Source: Myxococcota bacterium (GTDB lineage Bacteria > Myxococcota > JACRCW01). From it: a DNA stretch of 13,241 bases. Positions 3,153-12,876 of this stretch are shown here, piece by piece. The position numbers and the translations under genes are program-made. The notes under the pieces are model-generated. The model was not told the DNA's origin and ran no database searches. It saw nothing but the letters and a program-made list of their open reading frames with translations. Location: contig JBFMGU010000287.1 of NCBI GenBank assembly GCA_040752415.1, positions 1-13,241 on the forward strand, in the 5' to 3' direction. Within the stretch, counting starts at the first letter, position 1. Each line of letters begins with the position of its first letter.

Positions 3153-3503
3153 TCACGAGAGGGGCGGGAGCTCGGGAAGCGCAAACGTCCCATCCAACCG
3201 CGGCGCGAAGGGGAGCACCGCCACCACCGCCGACGTGGGCAACGCGCCGTAGATGTGTGGGAAAGGTTCGCTCCCGCCCTCCAGGTTCTCATGGACCACG
3301 CGCGCGGGGACCTTTCTCTCGTCAATGGCCAGGAGGACCAGGTCCTTCCGCGCTCGGAAGCGAGCGTTGGCCACGCGCACCACCTGCGCCGGCGTGGAGC
3401 AATGGATGAAACCCTCCGTGTGGAGCGTGTCCCCCTCGTAGCGGCCAAGGGCGCGGGCGACCTCCCAGGCGTCCTTCCCGGTGATGTGCAGGATGAGGCT
3501 CAT
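3153..3503 (-). CDS. DUF952 family protein (116 aa)
   Basis: Start ATG 3503 (AAAGG upstream); ILHI...W...G.Y...TL..EGFIHCST..QV...ANARF...LVLLAID...V..E....E.FPHIYGALP is the DUF952 signature. Confidence 0.9.
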   Translation of the reverse strand: MSLILHITGKDAWEVARALGRYEGDTLHTEGFIHCSTPAQVVRVANARFRARKDLVLLAIDERKVPARVVHENLEGGSEPFPHIYGALPTSAVVAVLPFAPRLDGTFALPELPPLS

Positions 3504-3540
3504 GTTCGCCTTTGAGCGCGAACCCCGGCCCGCGCACAAG

Positions 3541-3831
3541 GGGCTGCGTCAAGACAAGTTGCCCACCTGGTCCTGACCGCCTCCCGCGGACCACGACCTG
3601 GAGTGCGGCGGGCCCTCGCCGCCCTGGTCAGCGTCGAGCGGTTTGGACAACCGTCAAGGGTCCAAGCGCCACGAGGCAGGGCCTCACCCGACGTCATTGA
3701 GCCCCGGGGCTGTTCGGCCCGTTGTGAACGCGCTCGGCGCCGACCAGGGCGGCGAGGGCCCGCCGCACTCCAGGTATTGGTCCGCTCACGACGTCTGCAA
3801 CCCCACTGGGCATCTTGTTCTGACGCAGCCC
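3541..3831. mobile_element. MITE-like non-autonomous element, 291 bp, 25-bp imperfect TIRs, 4-bp CAAG flanking duplication
   Basis: Left end GGGCTGCGTCAAGACAAGTTGCCCA (3541-3565) matches the reverse complement of 3807-3831, GGGCTGCGTCAGAACAAGATGCCCA, at 22/25. CAAG lies at 3537-3540 and 3832-3835. No credible ORF inside. Confidence 0.7.
3596..3775. repeat. Inverted REP-like doublet (REPIN/BIME-like) nested in the MITE
   Basis: Perfect 34-bp inverted repeat ACCTGGAGTGCGGCGGGCCCTCGCCGCCCTGGTC (3596-3629 / 3742-3775). Each unit is GGAG plus a palindrome GCGGCG-n6-CGCCGC. Imperfect pairing extends outward (GCGGACCA) and inward to ACAAC/GTTGT (3650/3721). Confidence 0.8.
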
Positions 3832-4083
3832 CAAGCCCCGCCCCCCGGGCAAAGCAAAGCAACTGGCGCGAGCGGCATTTCGCGGCAGGGACGTTGGCCG
3901 CGGCCACGCGCGGTTCGGGCAGCGGGCAACCCGCCACTTTCCCTCGGCCGAACGGAGCGCTTAGGACGCGTAGGAACAGGGCCGAAGTGGGTCGGATTCA
4001 CGCATTCCCTTCGTCCCCGACGGGGCATGAAGGCGCAGATTGTTGATCCGCGGATCCCACGCAGAAAGCAACTCTTTCTGGAT

Positions 4084-4274
4084 TGGCACGAAAAGCGCAC
4101 GCCCCTCCGTCAGCAATGCGTTTCTCCTCGTGACTCGTTGTGGAAGGCACGAAAACTTTCCACGCAACGAAAAAATGTTTGCGTTGGTGCGCATCGCCTG
4201 CGCGATTTCCGGCTCGAAGAAAACGCGAAACTTCCCGTGAAAGGTTTGCGTTCTCCGACGACATTTCGCGTTTT
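4084..4274 (+). promoter_or_regulatory. AT-richer upstream regulatory region with repeated and palindromic sites
   Basis: GGCACGAAAA at 4085 and 4146, GGCTCGAAGA at 4211; TGCGTT at 4117, 4180 and 4247; ACGCAA-n11-TTGCGT (4162-4184); perfect 11-bp IR AAAACGCGAAA/TTTCGCGTTTT (4220-4230/4264-4274). TGGCACGAAAAGCGCA (4084-4099) also fits sigma54 GG-N10-GC. Confidence 0.55.
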
Positions 4275-4295
4275 GGAGCGTCCAAGCGGGGACTT

Positions 4296-4311
4296 GGGCA
4301 CGCGGCTTGAA
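4296..4311 (+). promoter_or_regulatory. Candidate sigma54 (-24/-12) promoter for the multiheme cytochrome
   Basis: GGGCACG-CGGC-TTGAA vs consensus TGGCACG-N4-TTGCW: correct spacing, GA instead of GC at -12; just downstream of the repeated sites and ~200 nt before ATG 4507. Confidence 0.4.
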
Positions 4312-4506
4312 CCTTCCCCAACCTGTGCATGTCGACCCTGCAGGTAGGAGCAACCGGACCCGGTTGTGTCCTGACGCCGCAAGGAACAGGTCCGCTGCGT
4401 GGCGGAGCCTGGATTCTCGCCGTGCCCAATCCCCCCCGGGAGCCGCTCACCCCGCCGCACGCGGCGTGGCCAAGCACCGCCCCATCCGCGACCAGGAGAC
4501 ACCGCA

Positions 4507-7500
4507 ATGAAACATCCTCCCTTCCCACGTGTCACATGGCTGCTCATGGCTGCGCTGGCTGCGCCGGTTGCTTCCGTGGGCTGCACCCAGCCATCCGGTG
4601 AGGAATGTCCGGACGGCAGCGCCCCCGACGAGGACGGCAACTGCCCGGACACCGGCGGCAACAACAACGGCTCCACCAGCAGCGGTGGTGGTGGCTCCTC
4701 CACCAGTGACGTCTCCAGCAACGGTGGGAGCACCAGCACCGGCGGCAGCACCAGCAATGGCGGCAGCACCAGTGGGAGCACCAGCACCGGTGGCAGCACC
4801 AGTGGGAGCACCAGCAGCACCAGCAGTGGGGGCGGAGACCTCCAGTGTCGGCCCGGCTGCGTGCCCAACTTCGACAACACCGAGTGCATCGACTCGTTGA
4901 CCGGCGGGGAGTGCGTGGACAACGGCACCTCCACCAGCAGCAGCGGCGGGATTGACACGCCCTACTGCCGCAACGGCGAAACCGCGCTGTACAACGGCCA
5001 GGAGATCGACTGTCGTTCCGAGGCCACCTGGGGCGCCTGCAACGGGCCCACGCGCAGCGGCGGCAATGACCAGCACCGCGCGGCGTGCCAGCTCTTCTGC
5101 AACGTGGATGAGATTGCCTCGGGCCTGCCCCCGTGCGACCCGGCCCCCTCCGAGAACAGCAACTGCATGCAGTGCCACAACGGCGCCGGTCCCAATGACC
5201 CGCGCTACAGCGGCGGCGGTCTGGAGGATCCGCACCCCTGGCGCTCCGCGGGCGGCCAGGCCCTGAGCTGCGTGAGCTGCCACGGCGGCGACGCCGAGAG
5301 CGGCATGTACAAGGACCGCGCGCACGTCTGTCCCCCGCCGGACATCGAGCAGATCCGCGACAACGGTGAGCCGCGCTGGGAAGGGGTGATCCTGGACCAG
5401 TACGGTCCGCGCGCGTGGAGCCGCTACCTGCACAAGAGCGGCCTGGACAAGAGCCAGACGGACGGCATCCTGGGCATCCCGGACTCCTGGACCTGCCTGG
5501 GCCGCGACGGCTCACCCACCCGAACCGTCACGAAGACGGACTATCTGCAGTTCCTGGCCCCCGGTGACCTGCGCGTGGTGGAGACCGGCAAGAGCTGCGG
5601 CGCCTGCCACGTCAACCAGTCCAAGGCCATGCCGCGCAGCGTGATCGGCACCAGCATCGGTCTCATCTCCGGCTCGCGCTTCGTGTTCGGCATTCCCGTG
5701 GCCGTCGTGGGCCGCAACCCGTGGGCGGTGGACTACGGTGTGCGCGACATCACCGCGCTGCAGAACCCGCAGGGCCCCTCCACCATGGACTTCATCGAGG
5801 CGGGCCAGGTGACCAGCCTGATGGAGCCGCGCTTCGTGCAGGACTTCGAGAGCAACGTCAATGTCCAGACCGTCACCGTGGCGCAGATGGCCCAGGGCGT
5901 GGAGTCCAACGCCAACCTGGACCAGCAGGCCTGGATCACCTACGGCTACAACCGCATCCGCGACCCCAACAGCGACCTGGCCAAGGCCATTGGCGTCACC
6001 TTCTACAAGCAGTGCGGTGACTGCCACGCCGGCGACAGCGGCCAGAACAACACCACCGCCGACTACCGCGGCAGCGGGTGCGCGGCGTGCCACATGGAGT
6101 ACGGATTCGAGGGTCGCTACCGCGGCCTGGATCCCAACCTGAACCGCGGTGAGCCCATCAACCCGGACTTCATCTACCCCGGCGAGCGTCCCCACGTGCG
6201 GGAGCACGTCATCCGCGGCAAGTACCGTCGCGTGGCGCGCCAGGGCCAGGCCGACCAGATCATCTACGGCATCAACTCGGTGCGCGCGTGCATTGGCTGT
6301 CACCAGGGCTCCAACCGCACCGTGCTGCAGTACGTGGGCATCCGCCTGGACCAGAACCAGGACGTGGTGAACAACCGCCAGTTCCCCGGCAATCCCATCG
6401 TCGCCCGCTTTGCCAATGAGTTCCAGGGCCGCGACGGCGTGGAACTGTACAACATCCCGTACGGTCAGAACGTCAATGACCGCACCACGCTGGTCAACAA
6501 CCGCGCCGCCACCCAGTACGTTCTCTATGAGGACTATGGCTGGCGAAACATCTTCTATGACATCAACCTGGGTGGCACCCCCAACGCCAATGACTTTGGC
6601 AACCGCGCCGCCACCAACCGTGACGACACGCCGGCGGACATCCACTACGAGCGCGGCCTGGAGTGCTACGACTGCCACACCTCCGGGGAGCTCCACGGCT
6701 CGGGCCGCATCTACGCCCGTGCGGACCACGCGCTGGCGGTGATGTGTGAGAGCTGCCACGGCAACGCCGACTCCTATGCCGCGCTAAGCCAGAACGGCTT
6801 TGCGGTGGACCGCTTCGGCACCGAGCTGAAGCACGTCTACAAGGACCAGACCGGCCGCTACTACCTGATTGGCAAGCGTGACGGCGTGCCGCACTTCATC
6901 CCGCAGGTGAAGGACCTGGTGAACAGCAACAGCCAGGTGACCAACCCGCGCAACAACCAGCCGCTGTATTCGGCCAACGCGGACTTCGCCATGGGGCGCA
7001 TGGACTTTGACCCCACCAACGGCGACGGACCGCTGCAGAACGTGGCCCAGCTGGACCAGGCCCTGCGCGCGCGCAACTTCAGCCACCTGGGCTCACCCAC
7101 CAACAAGGGCGGCGTGGCCTGCCAGACCTGCCACACCTCCTGGCAGAACCAGTGCGTGGGTTGTCACCTGGACCTGCAGGCCCGTCCCAACGTCGACGCG
7201 TACACGCAGATCTCCGCGCACTACGCCAACAACAACACCGGCGGCGTGCCCAACGTGGGCTTCCCCTGGGCCAATGACATCAACCAGAACTTCGTCAACA
7301 ACGTGAACGGTGAGTACGTGTTCACCACGCAGAACGCCAACTTCACGTACATTGACATCACCACGTTCTACATCGGTGTGGGCAGCCGCGGGCGCATCGT
7401 TCCCTTCACGCCCATGCACCAGTGGTACAACTACATCGACGCCAACGGTGACCGGCTGCAGGACGTCATGGTGATGCTGGGCGTGCAGCAGGCGGCCACC

Positions 7501-8223
7501 AATGCCAACTACACCTACGGCGCGGTGGCGGCGGCCAAGGGCCTGTTCTCCGACCGCATGGGCGCGGGCTCTTCGGCCGGCAACCGCAACCGCATGACGG
7601 CGTCCGGCGGCTACCACCAGTTCATGCCGCACACCCAGCGTGGTCGTCCCACCAGCCAGTCCTGGGGCGGCTTCGGCACGGCGTGCTTCCACTGCCACCT
7701 CACGCAGGGCACGGCCAACAACACCAGCGCGGTGGACCTGGTGCGCACCACCACGGGCCTTGGCGCCATCACGTACAAGAAGTTCGCCGCCGACAAGTGG
7801 GGCTGCCCCATGAACTTCACCAATTGCGCGGCCAACGCCACCGTGAACCAGCCGGCCGGCATTGCCGACTGCACCAACGGCACCGCGCTGGACAACCAGG
7901 CCCGCCTGTTCCTGTTTGACGGCAACGCCAACCTGTGCCCGCCGTCCACCGCCAACAACAACCCGCAGAACATGTTCGCGGATTATGACCAGTGGGTGAC
8001 GGCCTCGGGTGTGGCCAATGCCAAGAACAGCCACAAGATGGTGGAGTTCGGTGGCGTGCAGCGTCAGGGTGCCATTGACCCGGAGGCCGCCGGTCCGCTG
8101 GGTCTGCAGACGCTGCAGCTCCTCAACAACCTCAACAACAGCGGCATTGTGCTCACGCAGTGGGTGGACTGGAACGGCGTCCGCTGCAACGTGAACACCT
8201 GCCCCAACGGCTTCTTCCAATAG
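4507..8223 (+). CDS. Large multiheme c-type cytochrome lipoprotein (1238 aa, 11 CxxCH)
   Basis: AGGAG at 4494-4498 before ATG 4507; signal MKHPPFPRVTWLLMAALAAPVASVG-C. CxxCH starting at 5164 CMQCH, 5269 CVSCH, 5596 CGACH, 6013 CGDCH, 6079 CAACH, 6289 CIGCH, 6664 CYDCH, 6745 CESCH, 7120 CQTCH, 7153 CVGCH, 7684 CFHCH. Strong third-position C/G bias in this frame. Confidence 0.93.
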   Translation: MKHPPFPRVTWLLMAALAAPVASVGCTQPSGEECPDGSAPDEDGNCPDTGGNNNGSTSSGGGGSSTSDVSSNGGSTSTGGSTSNGGSTSGSTSTGGSTSGSTSSTSSGGGDLQCRPGCVPNFDNTECIDSLTGGECVDNGTSTSSSGGIDTPYCRNGETALYNGQEIDCRSEATWGACNGPTRSGGNDQHRAACQLFCNVDEIASGLPPCDPAPSENSNCMQCHNGAGPNDPRYSGGGLEDPHPWRSAGGQALSCVSCHGGDAESGMYKDRAHVCPPPDIEQIRDNGEPRWEGVILDQYGPRAWSRYLHKSGLDKSQTDGILGIPDSWTCLGRDGSPTRTVTKTDYLQFLAPGDLRVVETGKSCGACHVNQSKAMPRSVIGTSIGLISGSRFVFGIPVAVVGRNPWAVDYGVRDITALQNPQGPSTMDFIEAGQVTSLMEPRFVQDFESNVNVQTVTVAQMAQGVESNANLDQQAWITYGYNRIRDPNSDLAKAIGVTFYKQCGDCHAGDSGQNNTTADYRGSGCAACHMEYGFEGRYRGLDPNLNRGEPINPDFIYPGERPHVREHVIRGKYRRVARQGQADQIIYGINSVRACIGCHQGSNRTVLQYVGIRLDQNQDVVNNRQFPGNPIVARFANEFQGRDGVELYNIPYGQNVNDRTTLVNNRAATQYVLYEDYGWRNIFYDINLGGTPNANDFGNRAATNRDDTPADIHYERGLECYDCHTSGELHGSGRIYARADHALAVMCESCHGNADSYAALSQNGFAVDRFGTELKHVYKDQTGRYYLIGKRDGVPHFIPQVKDLVNSNSQVTNPRNNQPLYSANADFAMGRMDFDPTNGDGPLQNVAQLDQALRARNFSHLGSPTNKGGVACQTCHTSWQNQCVGCHLDLQARPNVDAYTQISAHYANNNTGGVPNVGFPWANDINQNFVNNVNGEYVFTTQNANFTYIDITTFYIGVGSRGRIVPFTPMHQWYNYIDANGDRLQDVMVMLGVQQAATNANYTYGAVAAAKGLFSDRMGAGSSAGNRNRMTASGGYHQFMPHTQRGRPTSQSWGGFGTACFHCHLTQGTANNTSAVDLVRTTTGLGAITYKKFAADKWGCPMNFTNCAANATVNQPAGIADCTNGTALDNQARLFLFDGNANLCPPSTANNNPQNMFADYDQWVTASGVANAKNSHKMVEFGGVQRQGAIDPEAAGPLGLQTLQLLNNLNNSGIVLTQWVDWNGVRCNVNTCPNGFFQ
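4723..4836 (+). repeat. In-frame 15/18-bp tandem repeats encoding a (G)GSTS(T/N) Ser/Gly/Thr linker
   Basis: Units of GGN-(GGN)-AGCACCAG(C/T); 4759-4788 and 4789-4818 match at 28/30. Confidence 0.85.
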
Positions 8224-8233
8224 GTTCGCGACC

Positions 8234-8278
8234 GACGGCGTCGCGGGGGCGGTTGGCAGACCCTCCCGCGACGCCGTC
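8234..8278 (+). terminator. Strong stem-loop after the cytochrome gene (terminator or mRNA-stabilising hairpin)
   Basis: Perfect 14-bp IR GACGGCGTCGCGGG (8234-8247) / CCCGCGACGCCGTC (8265-8278), 10 nt after TAG; followed by ACCTCTCT rather than a U-run. Confidence 0.65.
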
Positions 8279-9053: not shown

Positions 9054-11252
9054 ATGAGCACCGGCCAGGACCCCTACGCCAGACAACACCGCGGCGACGC
9101 TGCCGCCTACCAGGCCTACTTCGCCGGCATGGACGCCTCCATGCAGCAGAAGGTGGCGCTGACCACGGCGCACTTTCCGCCCCGCGGGCGCATTGCCGAC
9201 ATGGGCAGCGGCTCGGGCCGGGGCACCTACGACCTGGCGAGCCTGTATCCCGCGCTCGAGCTCGTCGGGGTGGACATCAATCCCGTCTCGGTGCGCGCCG
9301 CGCAGGAACGCTACCAGCGACCGAACCTGAGCTACGTCGTCGGCGACATTGCCGACCCGGTCTTCCCGCCGGAGTCCCTGGACGGAATCCTGGACTCGTC
9401 GGTGCTGCACCACGTGACCAGCTTCAACGGCTTCTCGCTCGCCCGCCTGGAGCAGTGTCTGGACAACCAGGCCGCGGCCTTGAAGCCCGGTGGCATCATC
9501 ATCATCCGGGACTTCGTGATTCCCCACGGGCCCGAGCTGGTGCATCTCGACGTTTCCGTCGTCGACGGAGCCGACACCGGCCCGGTGGAGCAGCTCTCCA
9601 CGGCGGCCCTGCTGGAACGGTTTGCCGCGGAGTTCCGCTGCAGCGTGAACCGTGACGGACCGGTCCCGTGCACCCGGCTCCCCTCGCCGCATCCCGGCTG
9701 TGCGCGCTTCCAGCTCACGCTCCGCGCGGCCCAGGAGTTCATCCTGCGCAAGGACTACCGCGCGGACTGGGCCGCCGAGCTCCTCGAGGAATACACCTAC
9801 TTCACGCAGGCGCAGTTCGAGGACGCGTTCCGTCGACGGGGGCTGCGCATTGTCACCGCCACGCCCATCCGCAATCCCTGGATCGTGGCCAACCGCTACC
9901 TGGGGCGCGTCCATCTCCACGCGCTGGACGGAACGCCGCTGCCGTTTCCACCCACGAACTTCCTCGTCGTCGGGGAGAAGGTGCGGGCGGGGCAGGGCGT
10001 GGCGCTGGTGGAGAAGCAGAGCGCCGCGCTGACGGAGCCGCGCTTCCTCCGCCTGCACTCGTACCGTCACAAGGAGCAGGACCAGCGCCTGGACCTCGTG
10101 GAGCGGCCCGGTCGCACCGTCGACGTGCTGCCCTGGTTCGAGCGGGAGGGCCAGCTGCTGGTGGTGGCCAAGAAGGGATTTCCCCGTCCCGTGGTGAACG
10201 CGTGCGCGGACCATCCCAACCTGGGTGGCGCGGGCGTGTCCGGCTACATCACCGAGCCCATTGCCGCCATCCTCCCCGACGACACACCGCCACACGAAGG
10301 CATCCGTCACGTGCTGCGCGAGCGCGCCGGCATCGCCGCGGACGACGTCATCTCCAGCACCGGGCCCATCACGTACTTCACCTCGCCCGGCGGCGTGGAT
10401 GAGTGCGTGTCGGCGTACCTGGTGAATGTTCGGGAAGGCGGCGCGGGGCAGGTGCGCGACTACGTACCGTTCAGCGAAGTGGGCACCGTGCGTGAGCTGG
10501 ACGCGTTGCAGGTGCTGCGCGCGTGCCAGGTGGGCGGCATGTTCGACGCGCGACTGGAGCTGAACATCTACCAGCTGCTGCGACGTCGTGGGCGCTCCGC
10601 GGGACCATGGATTGGCGCCACCATCTCCCCCACGGAACAATCCGGCACGCTTCCGCACTCACCCGAGGCCCTGCGCCCGCCCGCGCACGGGGCGTTCGAG
10701 CTGGTGGCCGGTGCCTCCGGTTTCCTCGACGTGCGCCAGGGCATCTTCGAGGAGCGCGATGCGCGCGGCGGGGTGTTGGTGGAGGTCCCGCGGGAGTACG
10801 TGCTCCCCAAGCAGCTGACGCGCAACACGGTGGTGGCGCTGCCGGTGGTGCGGACCTCGTCGGGGATCCACGTGGGGGTGGAGCACCGCGACCTGCCCGC
10901 GGTCCAACGCGCCACCGGCTCGTCAAGCATGGCCGTGGCGCCCGCCTGGCGGCTTCCCCACGACGTCACGGACCTGGGCGCGCTGCCGGCTTTCATGGCC
11001 CGCCGGATGCGCGTGCAGTTTGGCGCGGGCGTGTTGCGGAGCTGGGAGCTGGGGGGCGCGTACCTCCCCACGCCGGGCGTGACGCCGGAGGTGGTGCATC
11101 CCTACGCCGTGGAGGTGGCGCTGGATGCCCACACCGCACGTGCGCTGCGCTGGCTCTCCCTTGACGCGTTCCTCGCCGGTCTCGACGACGTCCACGACGC
11201 GCACCTGCTCACCGCGGGTTGCCGGCTGGCGCACGCGTTGGGGAAGCTGTAG
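9054..11252 (+). CDS. Class I SAM-dependent methyltransferase fused to two degenerate Nudix-like domains (732 aa)
   Basis: Motif I IADMGSGSG, LVGVDIN, VVGDI, SSVLHHV, LKPGGIIIIRDF. The C-terminal part has two repeats with ADP-ribose-pyrophosphatase-like YFTSPGGVDE (10374-10403) and YLPTPGVTPE (11061-11090) but no intact GX5EX7REUXEEXGU box. Confidence 0.85.
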   Translation: MSTGQDPYARQHRGDAAAYQAYFAGMDASMQQKVALTTAHFPPRGRIADMGSGSGRGTYDLASLYPALELVGVDINPVSVRAAQERYQRPNLSYVVGDIADPVFPPESLDGILDSSVLHHVTSFNGFSLARLEQCLDNQAAALKPGGIIIIRDFVIPHGPELVHLDVSVVDGADTGPVEQLSTAALLERFAAEFRCSVNRDGPVPCTRLPSPHPGCARFQLTLRAAQEFILRKDYRADWAAELLEEYTYFTQAQFEDAFRRRGLRIVTATPIRNPWIVANRYLGRVHLHALDGTPLPFPPTNFLVVGEKVRAGQGVALVEKQSAALTEPRFLRLHSYRHKEQDQRLDLVERPGRTVDVLPWFEREGQLLVVAKKGFPRPVVNACADHPNLGGAGVSGYITEPIAAILPDDTPPHEGIRHVLRERAGIAADDVISSTGPITYFTSPGGVDECVSAYLVNVREGGAGQVRDYVPFSEVGTVRELDALQVLRACQVGGMFDARLELNIYQLLRRRGRSAGPWIGATISPTEQSGTLPHSPEALRPPAHGAFELVAGASGFLDVRQGIFEERDARGGVLVEVPREYVLPKQLTRNTVVALPVVRTSSGIHVGVEHRDLPAVQRATGSSSMAVAPAWRLPHDVTDLGALPAFMARRMRVQFGAGVLRSWELGGAYLPTPGVTPEVVHPYAVEVALDAHTARALRWLSLDAFLAGLDDVHDAHLLTAGCRLAHALGKL

Positions 11253-11711: not shown

Positions 11712-11754
11712 GGCGCTTCCCGACGATGCGGGGATGTGGGCTAGATTCCGCGGC

Positions 11755-12876
11755 ATGGCGTTGCTGGGGCGCACGCTGTGGGGCCTGCTCGTGGTGGTGT
11801 GCGTGGCGCGGGAGGCGCGCGCGGACGCCAGGGATCCGGGCGCGGACTTCGACGGGCCGCTCGGCGTGCTGCAGCTCCATCCCATCCGGCAGTCGCTCCT
11901 GGACGTGATGAACCGCGGCTCGGTGGCGCATCCGTGGCTGCGCGCGGAGCGCAACGTCGGGAACATCTGGAACTCCGAGACGCATCTCTCGCTGGGGTCG
12001 GGACGACGTGCGCTGCACATGGTGGATGGGCAGCAGGAGAGCCTGGTGTTGGACGCGGGCATTCCCGTCGGGAGGTTCCTGGCGCTGGGCGTGCGCGGCG
12101 GGATGAGCCGGATGTGGGGCGGCGGACCGGTGGACCAGTCCATCGAGGACTTCCACCGTCAGTTCGACTTCTACAACTTCTCGCGCCACCACGCGCCGGC
12201 CAACCGCACCAGCATCATCCTGGAGTCCGACGGGAAACGGCTGCTCACCTGGCACGGCAACGTGGCGTACCTGCAGAACGTGGTGCTGACGACGTACCTG
12301 CGCGCGCTGGAGAACCGCACCACGCGCGTGATGGTCCGCTCCGACGTGCGCGTTCCCACCGGCGACATCTCCCGCGCGCTGGGACTGCTCCGCCCGGAGG
12401 CGGCGGTGGGCATCAGTGTGTGGCGCCGTTTCCGTCGGGTGCTGGCGTTCCACCTGGCGGGCGCGGCCATCTGGCACGGCAACCGCGAGCTGGCGGGATT
12501 GAAGGTGGAGGAGGTCCAGCTCGACGGAGAAGTGTCCCTGGAGCTGCGCCTCTCCCCGTGGCTGAGCCTGGTGGCGGAGGACAAGCTGCAGAGCCCGCTG
12601 TTCCAGCGCACCAAGACGCACGTGCTGGCGCAGGACTCCCTGCCGCTGCGCGCCACGGCGTGGAACGGCTATTTCACGCCGGTCAACATCATCACCGGCG
12701 GCGCGCGCCTGCGCCTGCCCGACGGCACGCACCTCTCGGTGTTCGTGGGTGAGGACTTCATGTTCTGCACCGCGTGCTGGCGGGAGCGGTACAGCCGGGA
12801 GACCAACTCGCCGGACATCTCGCTCTCCCTGGTGGTGGCGAAGTCCCTGTCGGTGACGACGGGGGGCCCGCCCTGA
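11755..12876 (+). CDS. DUF3187-like outer-membrane beta-barrel protein
   Basis: Signal peptide MALLGRTLWGLLVVVCVAREARA (start 11755; alternative 11734); GGGPVDQSIEDFHRQFDF resembles the DUF3187 GG.LD..I..FH..F motif; amphipathic strands; C-terminal VGEDF...SPDISLSL. TAGATT lies 7 nt before ATG 11755. Confidence 0.7.
   Translation: MALLGRTLWGLLVVVCVAREARADARDPGADFDGPLGVLQLHPIRQSLLDVMNRGSVAHPWLRAERNVGNIWNSETHLSLGSGRRALHMVDGQQESLVLDAGIPVGRFLALGVRGGMSRMWGGGPVDQSIEDFHRQFDFYNFSRHHAPANRTSIILESDGKRLLTWHGNVAYLQNVVLTTYLRALENRTTRVMVRSDVRVPTGDISRALGLLRPEAAVGISVWRRFRRVLAFHLAGAAIWHGNRELAGLKVEEVQLDGEVSLELRLSPWLSLVAEDKLQSPLFQRTKTHVLAQDSLPLRATAWNGYFTPVNIITGGARLRLPDGTHLSVFVGEDFMFCTACWRERYSRETNSPDISLSLVVAKSLSVTTGGPP

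Follow-up and report, generated by a model that had tools for sequence, protein, structure and literature searches.

Whether eleven hemes spread thinly along a single chain of 1238 residues make an enzyme or a conduit for electrons is the question raised by a gene of a Myxococcota bacterium, which lies at positions 4507-8223 of the forward strand of the DNA analyzed here (the window: 13,241 nucleotides, contig JBFMGU010000287.1 of assembly GCA_040752415.1), and consists of an open frame of 1238 codons followed by a stop codon. Through the multiheme cytochromes of the cell envelope, bacteria can trade electrons with a mineral, an electrode, or a partner cell, and, to our knowledge, nearly all of the mechanistic understanding of these proteins derives from Shewanella and Geobacter. 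The initial annotation of the locus took the sparse hemes to fit a catalytic or substrate-binding protein better than a pure electron wire. The reading preferred here, to which we assign about an even chance, is that the product is a lipid-tethered electron-transfer cytochrome built on an ExtM-like scaffold, probably located in the outer membrane or at the cell surface, and expanded to five copies in its lineage. The heme loading, the ligation, the location, and the direction of electron flow described below are all predictions derived from the sequence.

With 43 cysteines and 30 histidines in 1238 residues, approximately 0.04 CxxCH motifs would be expected by chance, in contrast with the 11 observed. 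None of the 11 heme motifs varies in an alignment of 83 sequences of the family, formed by the query and 82 homologues picked from the two search lists described below. The picture drawn by the initial annotation, of eleven CxxCH motifs in part closely paired, at some 113 residues per heme, separated by Asn/Gln-rich inserts and preceded by a lipobox, is borne out at each point. The frame does contain the 11 motifs, the close pairs are spaced by 35, 22, 27, and 11 residues, the mean density is one heme per 112.5 residues (1238/11), asparagine and glutamine account for 21% of the 319 inserted residues as against 11.6% of the core, and the lipobox ending in Cys26 fits the PROSITE-like lipoprotein pattern by which it was judged. 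The view of the protein as extracytoplasmic and tethered is supported, in turn, in the form of a lipid-tethered, multiheme c-type cytochrome. The Ser/Thr/Gly-rich tether and the small modules that follow it contain cysteines at residues 34, 46, 114, 118, 127, 136, 154, 169, 178, 194, and 198, and the Cys-rich part immediately before heme 1 aligns with two homologues of the long type (at least 1000 residues), P0003 and P0121. The cytochrome c maturation gene ResB (PF05140) was found in the same genome, on contig C220, at 202.9 bits, and a search of the genome for CcmE found none, which indicates that the maturation of cytochromes in this genome follows System II.

The origin of the unusual length emerges from a comparison with compact relatives. 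In the window protein itself, Pfam recovers only generic c7, c3, and c554 matches around residues 710-757, and the NCBIfam model of ExtM (NF040943) reaches 81.2 bits in two stretches, below its cut-off of 800. A set of 20 aligned proteins of approximately 600-760 residues was assembled from the weaker representative matches, and these compact proteins have the same order of heme motifs and many common flanking motifs, with 11 CxxCH in nine of the 20, 12 in one, 10 in six, and fewer in the other four. Eight of these proteins were scanned against the ExtM model, and scored 137-276 bits over most of its length, relative to the same cut-off of 800. The alignment of the family profile with the compact profile by hhalign gave a probability of 100% and an E-value of 4e-104 over 599 columns, nearly end to end (family columns 84-965 against compact columns 37-635). 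When the window protein was added to the compact alignment, 493 residues were left without a counterpart, that is, residues 34-207 and 20 inserts of at least 8 residues (319 residues), while the core common with the compact family has 691 residues, or 63 per heme; MtrC has approximately 67 residues per heme. The sparse spacing of the window protein is thus explained by some 493 residues of tether and inserts that sit on a dense scaffold of 691 residues, and the step from sparse hemes to catalysis, which the initial annotation had taken, falls with the end-to-end alignment to compact cytochromes of this density. Its description of the family as uncharacterized fares better in one respect, in that no curated Pfam or NCBIfam model matches above its cut-off, and is qualified in the other, in that the compact relatives tie the family to ExtM.

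The resemblance to ExtM includes a heme scaffold that is homologous end to end via the compact intermediates, the same order of the eleven heme motifs, several common flanking motifs, and the extracytoplasmic c-type nature of both cytochromes. The window protein differs in having 11 hemes in 1238 residues, whereas ExtM has 12 hemes in 68 kDa (PMC5877670, accessible sections), and in the presence of a long tether behind a lipoprotein signal and of approximately 319 inserted residues. Nor is the window gene part of an ext-type cluster, in which genes for Rieske, cytochrome b, and other Ext cytochrome proteins would accompany it; its neighbors are, instead, a DUF952 gene, a methyltransferase fusion, a DUF3187 gene, and unassigned lipoproteins. 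In Geobacter sulfurreducens, ExtM (GSU2935) is conserved across the genus, its gene is grouped with those of Rieske and cytochrome b proteins, and it has been detected in both membranes and in the periplasm (PMC5877670, accessible sections). The accessible part of a preprint (bioRxiv 10.1101/2025.11.18.688581) reports that its neighbor, ExtKL/MccSep, is indispensable to sulfur respiration; gsu2935 itself appears there solely as a control for polarity.

The family to which the window protein belongs is large. A word-indexed protein search scored 7999 candidates, of which 199 matched at E<=0.001 and 120 were listed, every listed match having an E-value of at most 2.1e-100 and spanning 82-100% of residues 200-1238. 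They are 31-37% identical to the window protein, except for the query itself and a paralogue from its own genome, P0002 (66%), which is the same sequence as the copy on contig C495 in the alignment, so that the nearest relative outside the genome is only about 41% identical over the matched stretches. The names given among the listed matches are limited to "hypothetical protein", and the matches with a named organism come from metagenome-assembled genomes of Myxococcota, Bradymonadia, and Planctomycetota. In an exhaustive search of representatives at 50% identity, the matches numbered 688 at E<=0.001, with a fall to 220 at E<=1e-10 and to 44 at E<=1e-30. A survey of the phylum, in which two candidates were scored per genome, found a profile match at E<=1e-50 in 20 of the 401 sampled genomes (its own genome included), and nine of these 20 matches start before profile position 61. 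No names were recovered by a protein cluster look-up of 10 homologues, the Protein Atlas neighbors of the cytochrome were only generic c7/c3 and ExtM-like clusters with scores <0.9, and no description of the family was found in the accessible parts of the literature retrieved by searches for undecaheme or 11-heme proteins, for multiheme cytochromes of Myxococcota and Planctomycetota, and for porin-cytochrome systems in these phyla. None of the fused, longer forms (2168-5000 residues) scored, which is weak evidence.

Within the alignment, 41 of the 83 members have 11 CxxCH, and a further 38 have 10 CxxCH together with one CxxxCH or CxxxxCH, with the consensus placing the longer motif at heme 3; the remaining four have fewer motifs, and two of these begin at heme 1 and appear to be truncated. 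The lipobox pattern fits 60 of the 82 homologues, most of the others visibly having a cysteine after a hydrophobic stretch, and some homologues carry Ig-like domains (Big_7, Glucodextran_B) at the N-terminus.

The number of potential heme ligands is compatible with a chain of electron-transfer hemes. Outside the motifs, H243, H273, H567, H713, H730, H860, and H1042 are invariant (83/83), and the other candidates are nearly so or frequent (H563 in 82/83, H796 in 81/83, M829 in 81/83, and H1176 in 75/83), with all 11 of the 11 candidate distal His/Met ligands being present in the window protein. An open-coordination heme is not required by the sequence, since eleven conserved His/Met candidates match eleven hemes, and a chain that is six-coordinate throughout is allowed, but not proven, by these residues. 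In the compact relatives, M829 is exchanged for histidine in four of 20 sequences and for lysine in one, and H730 for methionine in two, swaps that are the behavior of axial ligand positions as far as it can be read from an alignment.

Several observations weigh against the reading as an electron-transfer cytochrome of the outer membrane, beginning with the ligands themselves. Their assignment is based on conservation alone, and the compact relatives retain H796 in only 12 of 20 sequences, H1176 in 11, and H563 in 16, so that, with the candidates less constant there, a five-coordinate heme is possible. Four conserved residues are, moreover, replaced in the clade of the window protein, namely H371 by Q (H in 76/83), H1104 by F (H in 66/83), H1120 by A (H in 75/83), and M1121 by D (M in 74/83). 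These replacements favor the alternative that the protein is a catalytic, extracytoplasmic oxidoreductase, in which one or two hemes would be five-coordinate or weakly ligated and the inserts would build a substrate site for a multi-electron reaction of nitrogen, sulfur, selenium/tellurium, or peroxide species, an alternative that we consider unlikely. In the compact relatives, position 371 varies among I, T, E, and L, and the loss of H371 thus need not free a heme. The conserved candidate ligands are as many as the hemes, a dense scaffold with inserts accounts for the spacing, and these inserts are low-confidence parts of the structure model and vary among the paralogues. MccA has a long-spacer CX15-17CH motif at its active-site heme; the window protein contains neither this motif nor CxxCK, CxxxCH, or CxxxxCH, and its two Cx11-17CH strings merely span adjacent ordinary motifs or an upstream cysteine. 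A stand-alone gene would suit an enzyme fed from the general periplasmic pool of electrons, and two surface cytochromes, OcwA with nine hemes and OmhA with eleven, keep two five-coordinate hemes, OmhA also resembling the window protein in the number of hemes and being located on the cell surface (bioRxiv 10.1101/2022.02.24.481543, accessible parts).

The catalytic alternative also draws on structure, where every solved chain with any match comes from an enzyme of the octaheme/NrfA group, although these matches are weak and local. The AlphaFold2 model of residues 200-1238 has a mean predicted local distance difference test (pLDDT) of 71.8 and a predicted template modeling score (pTM) of 0.82, with low-confidence stretches located mostly in clade-specific inserts, and that of residues 482-899 has a pLDDT of 80.7 and a pTM of 0.78. 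Foldseek searches of the PDB gave best E-values of 1.4 (to unrelated proteins) and 0.98, respectively, and nothing at E<=0.001 for either model, and none of the 103 chains taken from Foldseek reached Z>=2 in VIA-align. A wider VIA-align run recovered a single chain for each model, both weak: the octaheme OTR 1sp3 for the longer model (Z 3.7, root-mean-square deviation 5.4, 269 aligned) and HAO 4n4j for the shorter one (Z 2.3, root-mean-square deviation 2.9, 57 aligned). The family profile matched only NrfA 6v0a among the PDB sequences (E 4.9e-4, approximately 70 residues), and this weak match stems from a di-heme module, H-x6-CxDCH ... CxxCH, in the region of hemes 7 and 8. The searches, which cover part of the structural comparison suggested by the initial annotation, found no solved structure that matches the protein over its full length. 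The OTR, HAO, and NrfA matches are a local resemblance of heme modules and provide no assignment of the fold, and no new fold is claimed, because heme-free models of heme-rich proteins match poorly. The window protein shares with the octaheme/NrfA group this local di-heme module, and differs in having no global match of sequence or fold, and no CxxCK. Among the family models, none of the octaheme/NrfA type in Pfam or NCBIfam matched above its cut-off, and for the MtrC/OmcA/UndA group, PF22113 scored 13.3 bits, short of its cut-off of 30, and TIGR03507 had no match at E<=1. The earlier statement that the protein could not be assigned to MtrC, HAO, or NrfA stands as far as the absence of any model above its cut-off is concerned, and is qualified by the local match to NrfA.

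The location proposed in the preferred reading, at the outer membrane or the surface, draws on the gene context of the relatives. Metagenome contigs yielded 227 confirmed loci, the best 80 of which were kept, 79 of them with the target frame and 45 with at least 3 kb upstream. The neighborhoods of the homologues, a second check that had been suggested for this locus, distinguish two contexts, in which the short-type proteins (<1000 residues) are usually found with a putative barrel gene, a small cytochrome gene, or both, and the long-type proteins are, with one exception, found alone. Upstream and on the same strand, 20 of the 28 short-type loci have a c7-type multiheme frame (17/28), a barrel-like frame of approximately 570 residues (11/28), or both (8/28). 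The upstream cytochrome of the short-type loci typically has approximately 216 residues, seven hemes, and a lipobox-like start, and lies directly 5' of the target gene; in the cluster of c7-type upstream frames as a whole, the median gap is 263 nt. The protein of approximately 570 residues has a signal peptide, 21 of 24 such frames end in F, W, or Y, no match was found in Pfam, NCBIfam, or the PDB, and, among the named Atlas clusters, those closest to it represent beta-barrel families, with a score of only 0.85.

The short-type loci are laid out like a porin-cytochrome conduit, whose outer component is the large lipoprotein cytochrome, as in the case of OmcB/OmcC, ExtC/ExtD, MtrC/OmcA, and UndA. 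The family resembles these proteins in its lipid anchor and 10-12 hemes, in the putative beta-barrel and small multiheme genes that the short-type relatives follow, and in the presence of several diverged paralogues in one genome, as is also the case of MtrC, MtrF, and OmcA. The window protein differs from them in falling outside PF22113 and TIGR03507, and in having no porin in the window. One metagenomic locus (L106:5351-7699 and the next gene), and likewise L101, L104, L125, and L128, contains a cluster of barrel-like, 7-heme, and 11-heme lipoprotein genes, which is putatively a new cluster of the porin-cytochrome type, and some loci encode a protein with 20-23 hemes further upstream.

The remaining points against this location come from the same comparison. 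The window protein resembles the long type, for which such a neighbor is found in only one of 17 loci, the calling of open reading frames in the metagenome contigs was rough, and eight loci from other genomes have no common neighbor, and none with the barrel or 7-heme context. The protein of approximately 570 residues is taken for an outer-membrane barrel from its signal peptide, its C-terminal residue, and its weak Atlas neighbors, and no such protein was found in the 96.8%-complete genome, whether by a search with one sequence or with a profile of 10 sequences. There is no porin or partner cytochrome near the gene in the window, and no functional test of ExtM itself appears in the accessible sections of PMC5877670. 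The 7-heme protein matches only a repeat protein with 30 hemes in the genome, on contig C39.

The absence of a porin beside the gene and the failure to detect a barrel-like homologue in the genome would both fit a periplasmic hub or store of electrons, anchored in either membrane on its periplasmic side, which would shuttle or buffer electrons between respiratory complexes and other cytochromes and have no extracellular role, a possibility that we regard as rather unlikely. The long tether could span the periplasmic space, and the nearest named relative, ExtM, whose gene accompanies those of a Rieske/cytochrome b unit, has been seen in both membranes as well as in the periplasm (PMC5877670, accessible sections). 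This possibility is opposed by the short-type relatives in their porin-cytochrome-like clusters, by the Ig-like N-terminal domains of some homologues, and by the five paralogues with divergent inserts, which better fit an exposure to varied partners. The residue at +2 is threonine rather than lysine, and a lysine at this position is the signal for retention in the inner membrane in Myxococcus xanthus.

These five full-length paralogues, including the window copy, are all found in a genome of 11 Mb, in 520 contigs, and the initial description of the cytochrome as stand-alone is correct for the locus and incorrect for the genome, in which it is one of five. They form a single clade on the longest branch of the tree (FastTree, 86 sequences, 910 columns, midpoint root), and all of them have a lipoprotein signal that ends in a cysteine and a Ser/Thr-rich tether. 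Their inserts differ, and there are no visible common genes in their flanks. All five are intact, and the ratio of nonsynonymous to synonymous substitution rates (dN/dS) is 0.25-0.40 in all 10 pairwise comparisons. The GC content at the third codon positions (GC3) of the cytochrome gene is 0.90, which is as expected of a real gene, since the window has 68% GC. The presence of five copies in one genome and the lack of a recognized promoter could suggest a decaying or non-functional duplicate, a redundant copy that is no longer made or loaded with heme, which is highly improbable in the face of the intact frame of 1238 codons, the retention of all 11 of 11 motifs, the dN/dS of 0.25-0.40 against every other copy, the ribosome-binding site, and the third-position GC. 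The intact frame and the dN/dS led to the rejection of the pseudogene reading, and the gene is taken as genuine and constrained.

Two of the paralogues form a tandem pair, approximately 120 nt apart (C169:3234-10415, + strand), and another genome, G034, likewise has a tandem pair of family members. The genome has 37 open reading frames with at least three CxxCH, which include a group on contig C157 with 11, 10, and 5 hemes. One frame of 827 residues (C39:9476-11956, - strand) has 30 CxxCH in repeats of the c7 type, to which the 7-heme protein from the metagenomic clusters is matched, and another of 730 residues (C334:57406-59598, - strand) has 11 CxxCH, is in parts 38-40% identical to the window protein, and looks like a compact form of the scaffold. 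A search for related loci in a collection of genome contigs, with a single protein as the query, returned one spurious short match only.

In the preferred reading, as an electron-transfer cytochrome, the protein would be exported and lipidated at Cys26, and would then extend through a flexible, Ser/Thr-rich tether of approximately 90 residues, followed by small modules of the disulfide type. The remaining residues, approximately 1030, would carry eleven covalent hemes, attached by the System II machinery of the genome, on a compact ExtM-like scaffold that would have been enlarged in this lineage by many Asn/Gln-rich surface inserts. The hemes may be arranged in a single chain in which most or all of them are six-coordinate, and the protein may serve, at the outer membrane or the cell surface, as a conduit or terminal that would pass electrons from periplasmic cytochromes to an external or envelope acceptor, or in the reverse direction. 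The five diverged paralogues may present different surfaces to different partners or acceptors. A more speculative proposal, which we consider improbable, is that the long, stand-alone forms are surface redox proteins that are independent of a porin, in which the anchor, the tether, and the Cys-rich modules replace docking to a barrel, and the inserts, together with the four lost His/Met residues, make a site for an external substrate, which might be a mineral, humic, sulfur, or metalloid compound.

A ribosome-binding site and a 3' hairpin are the expression signals recovered for the gene (Table 1). The initial annotation had credited it with a 3' hairpin and a complex promoter of its own, and only the former was recovered, as a perfect stem of 14 bp, which starts 10 nt past the stop codon and is absent from the output of the scan for terminators with a T tail. 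A scan of the window for sigma-70-like promoters returned 0 sites, a scripted scan of the upstream regions found no good sigma-54-like site, a scripted comparison found no 10-mer common to at least three of the five paralogue upstream regions, and the Rfam scan of the window gave no match. The 967 nt upstream (3540-4506) contain no open reading frame that passes the high-GC3 filter. Long antisense and alternative-frame open reading frames across the gene were rejected as artefacts of high GC, since only the + frame has conserved motifs and homologues.

Eight flanking open reading frames were scanned against Pfam and NCBIfam, of which three have a family match and none matches a porin, NapC/NirT, or ccm family, in agreement with the initial annotation. 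Upstream of the cytochrome gene is a DUF952 frame (3153-3503, - strand). A protein of 732 residues is encoded at 9054-11252 (+ strand), with a class I S-adenosylmethionine-dependent methyltransferase domain in its first 160 residues or so, while the remaining 550 or so match no family. At 11734-12876 (+ strand), 3.5 kb downstream, there is a DUF3187 protein with a signal peptide (31 bits, cut-off 24), a family which we take to be possibly of the outer membrane; two same-strand genes lie between it and the cytochrome gene, and a minus-strand frame precedes it. A lipoprotein of approximately 499 residues (862-2361, - strand; start MNRSCF..., lipobox ...LGGC) contains a zinc-protease-like HEFGH motif and has no match in Pfam or NCBIfam.

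Table 1. Features of the cytochrome gene and its product in the window, with the paralogues found elsewhere in the genome.
Feature	Positions	Strand	Remarks
Long gene-poor upstream stretch	3540..4493		GC drops to 56% at 4050-4349; presumed to bear the promoter
Shine-Dalgarno-like AGGAGA	4494..4499	+	7 nt 5' of ATG; GGAG-containing counterparts before the starts of other paralogues
Lipoprotein signal peptide, aa 1-26, lipobox ALAAPVASVGC	4507..4584	+	Cys26 predicted to be lipidated, Thr at +2
Ser/Thr/Gly-rich tether, then small Cys-rich modules, aa 27-207	4585..5127	+	
Undecaheme domain, aa 208-1238	5128..8220	+	ExtM-like compact scaffold broken by 20 inserts of at least 8 aa (319 aa)
Heme 1 CMQCH, aa 220-224	5164..5178	+	Invariant in the 83-sequence alignment
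Heme 2 CVSCH, aa 255-259	5269..5283	+	Invariant in the 83-sequence alignment
Heme 3 CGACH, aa 364-368	5596..5610	+	Site of the longer motif in the alignment consensus
Heme 4 CGDCH, aa 503-507	6013..6027	+	Invariant in the 83-sequence alignment
Heme 5 CAACH, aa 525-529	6079..6093	+	Invariant in the 83-sequence alignment
Heme 6 CIGCH, aa 595-599	6289..6303	+	Invariant in the 83-sequence alignment
Heme 7 CYDCH, aa 720-724	6664..6678	+	Within the H-x6-CxDCH ... CxxCH di-heme module
Heme 8 CESCH, aa 747-751	6745..6759	+	Invariant in the 83-sequence alignment
Heme 9 CQTCH, aa 872-876	7120..7134	+	Invariant in the 83-sequence alignment
Heme 10 CVGCH, aa 883-887	7153..7167	+	Invariant in the 83-sequence alignment
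Heme 11 CFHCH, aa 1060-1064	7684..7698	+	Invariant in the 83-sequence alignment
3' hairpin	8234..8278	+	14-bp perfect GC-rich stem, 17-nt loop, without T tail
Paralogue on C60			82% identity to the window copy
Tandem paralogue pair on C169			78% and 67% identity to the window copy
Paralogue on C495			64% identity to the window copy

The analysis places the window protein in a large, unnamed family of eleven-heme lipoproteins, tied to the ExtM scaffold, for which no structural relative was found in the PDB searches. The family provides a natural experiment on how a single heme scaffold accommodates insertions that add up to hundreds of residues. If the improbable, porin-independent proposal were true, it would point to a route of extracellular electron transfer without a porin in a little-sampled lineage with a large genome. 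The members of this family represent testable candidates for extracellular electron transfer beyond the model organisms.

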